From positions 1 to 43,607 of IMG/VR virus record IMGVR_UViG_2541047966_000006: a stretch of DNA of 43,607 bases; one strand, 5' to 3'. A program made the translations under genes and the position numbers. Shown here piece after piece: positions 39,069 to 41,774 of this stretch (its first letter is position 1; every line of letters starts with the position of its first letter). The DNA is from a virus. Taxonomy: Duplodnaviria > Heunggongvirae > Uroviricota > Caudoviricetes. The notes beneath the pieces are model-generated. The model had not been told where the DNA came from, made no database searches, and saw nothing but the letters and a program-made list of their open reading frames with translations.

Positions 39069-41774
39069 ATGACAGACATTACAGCCAATGTTGTGGTAAG
39101 CATGCCTTCGCAACTCTTCACTATGGCTCGTTCTTTTAAAGCGGTTGCCAATGGCAAAATTTATATCGGAAAAATTGACACTGACCCGGTAAATCCTGAA
39201 AACCAGATTCAGGTTTATGTAGAGAACGAAGACGGTTCTCGCGTTCCTGTTTTGCAACCAATCATCATTAACGCTGCTGGATATCCGGTATATAACGGAC
39301 AGATTGCCAAGTTCGTAACTGTGCAAGGCCATTCTATGGCTGTTTACGATGCTTATGGCACTCAGCAGTTTTATTTCCCAAATGTATTAAAATACGATCC
39401 AGATCAGTTTGGCCCAGACTTCAAAGAGCAGTTATCTCAATCAGGAGCATACATTAATGATGATTCAAAAGGTGATGCATTAATTGGGGTAAGGCAGCCA
39501 TTTACCGGGGCTGTAACTATAACTCAGCATGAAAACAATGCTCTTTTCTTAAATGTAAAACAATTTGGAGCAATTGGGGATGGGAAATATCATCCATTAT
39601 CTGAGTGGTTTTCTTCAATTTCTGAAGCAAAATCCTTATATCCTTTTGTTGACTCATTATCTCAGTCAATAGACTGGGCCGCGTGGCAAGCTGCCCTTAA
39701 CACAGGAAAGGTTATTTATGGTACTGATAATGCGTATGTAATAACGGATACGTTAACACCTGTTTCTGGTGGTGGGATAATTTGTCTTGGTGTGGGCAAA
39801 TGGGTCTCAGGATATACTGCAACATTTGCTCCTGATATTACCACAGGGACCACATTCCTGATGTACGGGGTAGGAAATAAAAAATATACTGTAGATTGTG
39901 TTTCTAATATGGATGTTAGTGGTGGCGTGGTTTCTAATCCATCTTCCGAAGACCCGTATACAACAACGGCACCTGCTTCATCATATGATTTATTGGATTT
40001 TACTAACGGTGATGCTAATGGGGCTACAAGAGCCACACTTAAACCATTCTCTGCCGCAATATTGATGCCTGAGACAGGATGTGTTCGCCTTGAGAACTTT
40101 CGTATTGTTCCATATTTCAATGGGCTGGATGGTTATAAAGACATTGCAAATACCGGTCTTGGCGATGAGTGGGATGTAGGTATTTGGTCACGTGCGTCTT
40201 TTGGCAATGAATACCGCAATTTGCAGGTGGTTGGATACTGGCGCAAGACGGCACTTTTAAAAACGAACATTCCTGTATCTGGCACGCTGGCTGCTCAGGG
40301 CGAGGATGAAAACTATTATCACTGTAGATTCCAAGGATTCAAGGGTGTTTCGATCCGCGCCCATGATGTATTCCGAATTACAGCGGTAACGTCCAGCACT
40401 ATCGAAATCCCATGGTCAGCAAGCCACACCTTCGAAACGTCCGGGGTTTTAAGATCTGGAGGCAGGAATTTCACTTATTCAGGATTATCCGTATCCGGTG
40501 ATAAGTTAGTATTTACTGGAGTGTCTAACGCTTCTGAGGCAACAGTAGGTTCTACTATACGGCGAAATGACATAGATAACTTTGGTATGGCGGGAACGCA
40601 ATTTTTCGATTGCTACATTACCAGCCTGTATCACCACACACATCTGCTTGCCACATCGCAATACCTGTCTCAGCCATTCAGCCGGCCATCAGAGTGTATG
40701 GAGGTTTCAGGGGAACCAGTTCGCGGTGTACAGGTACATGCAGGAACCATTCAGGGATGGGATGATGTTCTTATTCATCTACATGACTGTGGAAATATGA
40801 ACTTTTACAGTACATATTTCGAAAGCCAGCAAGCATATGTAACTATAAATGGTGGTAATGCTATTGGTTATGGAGCACGTATGATAGCTTCCCGGCAATC
40901 AACAAGCTCATTACCATATGCAGCAGGGAATACTCGAGTGCTTAGAATGGTCGGGTGCTCTGAAGGCAATGGCGTTGACTGGGGTCCTGTATTTAACAAC
41001 TATACAGGAGGAAGATATAATTCTGGAGACGGTGTATTTAACCCCCGCGATGCATTTATAGACCATAAATCTCTTCCTGAGCAGTCAGGAGGTGAGTCAA
41101 GACTCGTATCACAAAAAGGAAATGCCAGAGTAGTATGTGGTGTTGGTAAAACTGTACTGCTTGGACCAACGTCAGGAGATTGTAATTTACAGAGTAATAC
41201 TGGAAGTTTAAATATTAGAAGCGGGATAAGAGTAAGAATCGGTCACGCTGATGGAACAGACTGGTGGTTGGCAGATGCTAATAAAATAGCTCCTGTTGAT
41301 GATAATGTTAAAGCTATTGGACAGCCATCAAACAGATGCTCTGTTATTTATGCAGGAACCGGGTCAATCAATACATCAGATGAAACTCTTAAAACAAGAT
41401 ATGATATTCTTAATGCAGAGCGTGATGCCGCTATTGAAATAAAGTCAGTCATCTATAAATTTAAATTTAATGACTCAATTAATCACAAAGGAATTGAGTC
41501 GTCCAGGTATCATTTTGGCGTTGGCGCTCAAACCGTAGGGGATATTCTTAGAAAGCATGGTTTAAACCCTGAGCAATATGCTTTTTGGTGTTACGATGAA
41601 TGGCCTGACGTATGGGATGAAGAGGTGATAACTGAAGAGAGCACAGATCCTGATACAGGTGAGAAAATTTATTCTCAATATAAAACAGGAGATATGATTC
41701 TTGTAAAAAAAGCAGGAGGACGCTACGGAATTCGTTATGACGAATTGGCTATGTTTATATTAATGGCAATGTAG
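39069..41774 (+). CDS. tailspike: P22-type head-binding N-domain with non-P22 receptor-binding region and probable C-terminal chaperone-like domain
   Basis: N-terminal ~120 aa [56 protein letters not shown] match P22 gp9; remainder (901 aa total) divergent and AT-rich. Confidence 0.85.

Follow-up and report, generated by a model that had tools for sequence, protein, structure and literature searches.

Among the described systems closest to the gene analysed here are the tailspikes of phages P22 (gp9) and Sf6 (gp14), which carry an N-terminal head-binding domain and a right-handed beta-helix receptor domain, are without a C-terminal chaperone domain and both target O antigens. Another layout is found in siaK1 of CUS-3, a P22-like prophage of Escherichia coli K1 strain RS218, where a P22-type anchor is joined to a capsule-specific enzyme, an endosialidase of glycoside hydrolase family 58 (GH58) with K1 polysialic acid as its substrate, and to a self-cleaving chaperone. 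Here we describe the tailspike gene located near one end of a stretch of 43,607 nucleotides (nt) from a virus of the Caudoviricetes (IMG/VR record IMGVR_UViG_2541047966_000006, positions 1 to 43,607), which we call the window. A prophage of E. coli DLL7555 matches the window with 99.97% identity. The tailspike protein is 100% identical to WP_021514129.1 of this strain, annotated as 'phage tailspike protein', and PHROG 1171 'tail spike protein' spans its residues 1-901.

The gene shares with siaK1 its slot directly after ant, a head-binding domain that is 88% identical, a C-terminal chaperone domain that is 36% identical and has the S-D-x-x-L-K motif, and the general layout of anchor, enzyme and chaperone. 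However, its centre is a predicted pectate-lyase-like beta-helix unrelated to the GH58 endosialidase, and its substrate is presumably the K13/K23 capsule instead of polysialic acid. We are fairly confident that this is the tailspike of a complete P22-like prophage and that it is made of three separately exchangeable modules: anchor, beta-helix and self-cleaving chaperone. Regarding the receptor, the group 2 capsule K13/K23, and not an O antigen, is the most likely candidate, with slightly better than even odds, in which case the protein would be a K13/K23 capsule depolymerase. The design of anchor, capsule enzyme and self-cleaving chaperone, as well as the swapping of such cassettes, is already known, with CUS-3 as the precedent. 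What is new here is the differing enzyme module and, most likely, the K13/K23 receptor suggested by the mixed O types of the strains carrying the cassette and by their capsule gene krkA.

Domains of the tailspike

Residues 1-113 give a full-length match to the P22 gp9-type head-binding domain, as in the Lederbergvirus-type tailspikes, and the corresponding DNA (gene nt 1-341) is about 85-92% identical to that of many P22-like phages. In the comparison with the Protein Data Bank (PDB), the full-length P22 gp9 structures (2xc1 and 8tvr) align to residues 1-121 only, whereas for Sf6 gp14 the alignment continues, with decaying identity, as far as residue 175; past this residue the tailspike has no detectable sequence likeness to gp9 or gp14. 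The initial annotation had stated that only the first ~120 residues match P22 gp9, which is correct for P22 itself, but the likeness to known tailspikes runs on for more than 50 residues. It had also described all the remaining residues as AT-rich, and this is only weakly true: the GC content is 0.419 in the head-binding domain, 0.382 in the neck, 0.438 in the central domain and 0.371 in the C-terminal domain (0.467 in the window), and the entire right end of the prophage (36-42 kb) has around 0.42. AT-richness as a sign of a foreign part was therefore ruled out, since the head-binding domain is equally AT-rich and composition does not split the P22-like part off.

Regarding the centre of the protein, residues 176-732 used as a query retrieved 136 relatives, 25 of which were aligned with the full protein, and this alignment was given to AlphaFold2. 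The monomer model had a mean predicted local distance difference test (pLDDT) of 68, with values mostly of 80-95 over residues ~140-640 and ~770-901. In this predicted structure the central domain folds as a right-handed parallel beta-helix, with the N-cap motif [11 protein letters not shown], so that structure prediction supports the beta-helix for which the initial annotation had suggested a search. The closest structural neighbours of the domain in the fold search are mostly active depolymerases. Furthermore, proteins homologous to the central domain (42-47% identity) match PF12708, as does an 824-aa E. coli paralogue. Seven acidic residues (D369, E412, D433, E545, D565, D566 and E585) are shared by 24 or more of the 26 sequences, down to 33% identity, and are candidates for the active site. 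We also considered an endosialidase (GH58) and rejected it: only the last 35 positions of End_tail_spike (PF12219) match, in the stalk (residues 735-769, 22.8 bits, below the cut-off of 25), and the centre is unrelated to that of siaK1. The tailspike is not an endosialidase.

The C-terminal end is of a different kind. Peptidase_S74 (PF13884) matches residues 770-832 with 23.0 bits, the gathering cut-off being 22, and a phmmer search of PDB links the last ~170 residues to the solved chaperone domains 7y5s, 3gw6, 4uw8 and 3gud, with E-values from 7e-23 to 3e-9 (7e-23 for 7y5s and 2e-14 for 3gw6), and also to 9vvr and 6eu4. The predicted fold agrees with them (Foldseek E 3e-9 for 3gw6 and 2e-7 for 4uw8, TM 0.74 for 3gud). 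Thus residues ~735-901 are alike in sequence and predicted fold to the K1F endosialidase (3GW6), T5 pb1 (4UW8), the neck appendage gp12 of the phi29 family (3GUD) and gp51 of Klebsiella phage Kp7 (7Y5S), and have Arg, Ser and Lys at equal spacing, although the upstream functional domains differ and the cleavage here is a prediction. In the alignment to 3gw6, which is an S911A mutant, Ser770 (codon 41376-41378) corresponds to position 911, Lys775 (41391-41393) to K916 and Arg756 (41334-41336, within the stalk) to R897. In endoNF, R897, S911 and K916 have been reported as essential for self-cleavage (PMC8326128). The tailspike therefore has the Ser-Lys dyad five residues apart together with the upstream stalk arginine, and R...S-[DE]-x-x-x-K is kept in every relative of the central domain that bears an S74 domain. 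Several relatives are without it (P0103, P0113-P0117 and P0119), therefore the S74 domain is a separable module. The homologous MyRF domain is cut directly before its catalytic serine, between P586 and S587; by analogy, cleavage between T769 and S770 should give a mature chain of 83.1 kDa and a freed domain of 15.3 kDa. The resemblance of the last ~130 residues (770-901) to the self-cleaving chaperones of endosialidase type, proposed in the initial annotation, is thus borne out by Pfam, by sequence and fold matches in PDB and by the three conserved residues.

The tailspikes of P22-like phages are homotrimers, of which the tail hub bears six copies. In the mechanism that we propose, residues 1-113 would plug the trimer into the tail hub, and the beta-helix (residues ~140-640) would bind a polysaccharide of the host surface and most likely cleave it, which would let the virion reach the outer membrane. 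Residues 770-901 would nucleate the trimeric folding of the preceding stalk, and the chaperone would then remove itself by autoproteolysis between T769 and S770, through Ser770 and Lys775 with the help of Arg756, leaving a mature subunit of 83 kDa.

Exchange of the cassette between anchors

The survey set consisted of 5426 complete E. coli genomes. Some part of the tailspike gene is matched in 1144 of them, many at the two ends of the gene only, and the receptor-binding part is carried by only 15. Among these carriers the receptor domain is nearly identical (98.9-100% at the DNA level).

The DNA likeness to other P22-like tailspike genes stops at gene nt ~339-374 (blastn), and a stretch of 99% identity to the gene of a 991-aa 'tail fiber' starts at gene nt 399 (window 39467, motif [12 protein letters not shown]) and extends to the end of the gene. 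This fibre belongs to a different prophage family, the epsilon15/phiV10-like prophages (e.g. YDC107_2). Over its first 200 residues it shares 77-81% identity with the tailspikes of phiV10 and epsilon15, which means that the same cassette is attached there to an anchor of epsilon15 type instead. It is also found, with 77% protein identity, in gp35 of the T7-like phage YZ1 (Kayfunavirus), behind a T7 tail-fibre N-domain plus Tail_spike_N. Both the 991-aa fibre and gp35 are annotated as hypothetical protein or tail fibre, without an assigned specificity. Finally, the central domain occurs with 80-93% identity in metagenomic proteins that have a Tail_spike_N anchor, the anchors of the metagenomic versions being PF18668 and/or PF03906. 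The cassette is therefore documented on four different anchors, the P22-type one and three others, and the swap of a host-range module that the initial annotation had suspected is confirmed. The last 450 nt of the gene also behave as a module, 88% identical to the common 824-aa P22-like tailspike of E. coli, whereas the central domains of both proteins are only 39% identical in amino acids.

Four genomes (DLL7555, SBF22, OZ547246 and 702/18) have the cassette twice, once per prophage type, so two unrelated prophages in one cell share a single specificity module. In DLL7555 the second prophage, epsilon15/phiV10-like, has its 991-aa fibre at NZ_CP186931.1 2161520-2164495, with a cassette of 99% DNA identity. 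In strain 702/18 (NZ_CP074701.1 4845217-4849267) an IS3-family insertion divides the P22-like tailspike gene, and the epsilon15-like copy is intact. We also observed on one contig of an Enterobacter asburiae chromosome two separate proteins (P0102 and P0118), one of 511 residues for the central domain (80% identity) and one of 359 residues for the chaperone part (70%); this may represent a cassette outside Escherichia that has been split or disrupted.

O antigen, capsule and the probable receptor

For the host associations, the DNA of the receptor domain was joined to a marker gene as a chimeric query, and the matched places were counted per genome. Extra matched places in the four genomes with two cassettes were rejected as marker hits because they are the fibre of the epsilon15-like prophage. 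Regarding the O antigen, DLL7555 and UPEC_U013 are O6 and YDC107 is O102. The O6 wzy gene was found in 2 of the 15 carriers and in 152 of the 5411 non-carriers (p = 0.07), and the O102 wzy gene, which was not resolved in LS45, only in YDC107. By these markers, and with the same reservation for LS45, the remaining twelve carriers belong to neither O6 nor O102. Both O6 and O102 were thus rejected as the specificity, and with such a mixture of O types a single O antigen is unlikely as the receptor.

Region 2 of the kps locus of DLL7555 encodes a 1114-aa 'HAD family hydrolase' (WP_001336789), an O-acetyltransferase and a transposase. This accession and this set of genes are those of KrkA, the polymerase building the K13 capsule in NCTC9022 (PMC12887879), and the K13 and K23 loci are genetically indistinguishable (PMC13171606). 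A krkA segment of 1.5 kb was present in 64 of the 5426 genomes, specifically in 11 of the 15 carriers (nine listed directly; CS5L and 702/18 deduced from the place counts) and in 53 of the 5411 non-carriers, an odds ratio of 278. This is the pattern expected of a K13/K23 capsule depolymerase, found in prophages of K13/K23 strains whatever their O type, with four exceptions. The initial annotation had spoken of a possibly different polysaccharide specificity; the krkA association and the mixed O types allow us to narrow this to the probable K13/K23 capsule. Chemically, K13/K23 is a group 2 capsule, a polymer of beta-ribofuranose and 3-deoxy-D-manno-oct-2-ulosonic acid (Kdo), beta-Ribf-(1->7)-beta-Kdo.

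Several points weigh against a K13/K23 depolymerase with this architecture. In the AlphaFold2 monomer the N-terminus and residues 640-770 are poorly modelled, the former because few rows of the alignment contain it and the latter as expected, because the stalk folds only as a trimer. Neither of the Pfam beta-helix families PF12708 and PF13229 matches the tailspike itself at E <= 1, the Peptidase_S74 match is marginal, and whether the enzyme is a hydrolase or a lyase, and which bond it cuts, are not readable from the fold. On the side of the hosts, krkA is absent in four of the carriers (OZ547246, 23CRST013, LS45 and XH992), and kps region 2 of XH992 is unrelated, with glf, sugar dehydrogenase and glycosyltransferase family 2 (GT2) genes. 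Furthermore, the one-sided Fisher p of 3e-19 for the enrichment ignores the shared ancestry of the strains and overstates their independence, and a prophage reflects a past infection and not necessarily the present surface of its host. Because of these points on the hosts, we hold K13/K23 as the most likely receptor and not as an established one.

The krkA-negative carriers would be explained if the K13 link only reflected clonal descent and the phage in truth recognised another lineage-linked glycan, or a capsule that the exceptions share. Several carriers may actually be close relatives, and OZ547246 shares island proteins with DLL7555. However, the carriers with krkA include O6, O102 and other O types, fall into two krkA allele classes (99.9-100% and 97.7-97.8%) and have the cassette in two unrelated prophage backbones, therefore we regard this explanation as rather unlikely. 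An endoglycosidase specific for the O antigen of the host (O6 in DLL7555), as in P22, Sf6 or HK620, is the default expectation for a P22-like phage, and it would fit both the neck and N-cap, which resemble the Sf6 endorhamnosidase through residue 175, and the shared O6 of DLL7555 and UPEC_U013. Nevertheless, the wzy counts given above speak against it, and one nearly identical domain is unlikely to serve at least three unrelated O-antigen types; we consider it improbable.

The two other alternatives concern the protein itself. The beta-helix might only bind, as in an adhesin-like spike, or be catalytically dead within a decaying prophage remnant, and it is true that the acidic residues are only candidates for catalysis, that ant is frameshifted in DLL7555 and that an IS3 element interrupts the gene in strain 702/18. 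Against this, the reading frame is unbroken and its conservation across the carriers is 98.6% or higher, the prophage has the full P22-like gene set, the seven acidic residues are conserved in distant homologues and the nearest folds are those of active enzymes, which leaves such a spike with little probability. Even less probable, in our opinion, is that the mature spike keeps the C-terminal domain, uncleaved, as a distal knob for receptor binding. The low Pfam score and the existence of C-terminal binding domains on some tail fibres would favour a knob, but the spacing of Arg756, Ser770 and Lys775 equals that of R897, S911 and K916 in endoNF, the fold matches 3gw6, 3gud and 4uw8, and the homologues of the central domain without a C-terminal domain place the latter outside the binding unit.

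Returning to the K13/K23 depolymerase, we propose, only tentatively, that no depolymerase for the Kdo-ribofuranose capsules K13/K23 had been defined by sequence before this cassette. It would be a glycanase that cuts either a beta-Kdo or a beta-ribofuranosyl linkage, and it would move as a unit among at least four lineages of phages preying on K13 E. coli (P22-like, epsilon15-like, T7-like and Tail_spike_N-bearing). Our literature searches found no sequence-defined phage depolymerase or tailspike specific for K13. Descriptions of coliphages specific for K13 and K20 that have Kdo-cleaving glycanases date from the 1980s-90s and give no sequences. To our knowledge, the cutting of beta-Kdo or beta-ribofuranosyl linkages has no structurally characterised representative among the phage beta-helix enzymes.

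We add two observations on isolate AHB29 (OZ547246). It has both copies of the cassette yet no krkA. In addition, at 4426000-4470000 (L016) its pap/fec island adjoins cadC, at the pheU site, whereas in DLL7555 the island adjoins kps, with identical protein accessions; this arrangement suggests a large inversion or a transfer of the island between the pheV and pheU sites.

Prophage setting and significance

The tailspike gene is the final gene of a complete P22-like prophage inserted at tRNA-Thr (thrW), beside proA, a prophage that adjoins the vat island. In the annotation of DLL7555 the order is terminase, portal, scaffold, P22-type coat, gp4/gp10/needle, ejection proteins, the immI region with arc/mnt-like genes and ant, and then the tailspike, with attR at thrW; the tailspike gene thus occupies the late-region position usual in P22-like phages, after the ejection proteins and the immI/ant region. 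The interval of the initial annotation (39400-41774) falls inside the ORF and begins near the end of the head-binding domain (39407). All the opposite-strand ORFs within the gene are short, of 134 residues at most. The coordinates are collected in Table 1.

Table 1. Position in the window of the tailspike gene, its parts and the flanking terminator-like signals
Feature	Residues or gene nt	Window	Strand	Remark	Basis
Tailspike gene	901 residues + stop	39069..41774	+	one intact ORF	ORF list
P22 gp9-type head-binding (virion anchor) domain	1-113	39069..39407	+		Pfam PF09008, E 3e-66
Linker/neck with recombination junction	114-140	39408..39488	+		blastn boundaries, Sf6 gp14 alignment
Predicted right-handed parallel beta-helix, receptor-binding and presumed depolymerase	~141-640	39489..40988	+		
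C-terminal stalk, presumed trimeric beta-structure	641-769	40989..41375	+	low monomer pLDDT	
Predicted intramolecular chaperone/auto-cleavage domain (Peptidase_S74)	770-901	41376..41771	+	15.3 kDa	Pfam PF13884, PDB matches
C-terminal DNA module	gene nt 2257-2706 (last 450 nt)	41325..41774	+		blastn/blastp
Terminator-like hairpin and T-run, between ant and the tailspike gene		38987..39012	+		consensus scan only
Terminator-like hairpin and T-run, 19 nt past the tailspike stop codon		41793..41825	+		consensus scan only

Some further features of the prophage were noted. In the window ant (38000-38968, +) is a single ORF of 322 residues from a TTG start, and the DLL7555 copy is annotated as a frameshifted pseudogene; the alignment of both prophages has two gaps across 38.5 kb. 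At megablast level the whole window aligns to the DLL7555 prophage except for a stretch of ~340 bp (4765-5101) among ead/Ea22-like early genes, apparently a small mosaic replacement. A gene with a NUMOD4 domain, homing-endonuclease-like (L004:16159-16704, roughly window 25600-26100, +), separates the gp10-like 'packaged DNA stabilization' gene from that of the tail needle, which is annotated as knob-bearing. An accessory cluster coding for Panacea-domain, YobH-family and small hypothetical proteins lies between the ejection proteins and immI (L004:9235-10579, roughly window 31700-33100) and may be toxin-antitoxin or superinfection-exclusion cargo. Past the tailspike there are an integrase remnant (42310-42648, +), with only the Arm DNA-binding N-terminus, and a MarR-type regulator (43083-43607, -) in a stretch of 30% GC. 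As this stretch runs into the vat autotransporter island, both the prophage and the island are at the thrW site.

Tailspikes decide which strains a phage infects, and the one described here shows a cassette of receptor-binding and chaperone domains moving between unrelated anchors. [quoted passage not shown] If the K13/K23 assignment is true, this tailspike would be a specific reagent for typing, for capsule stripping and for phage engineering.

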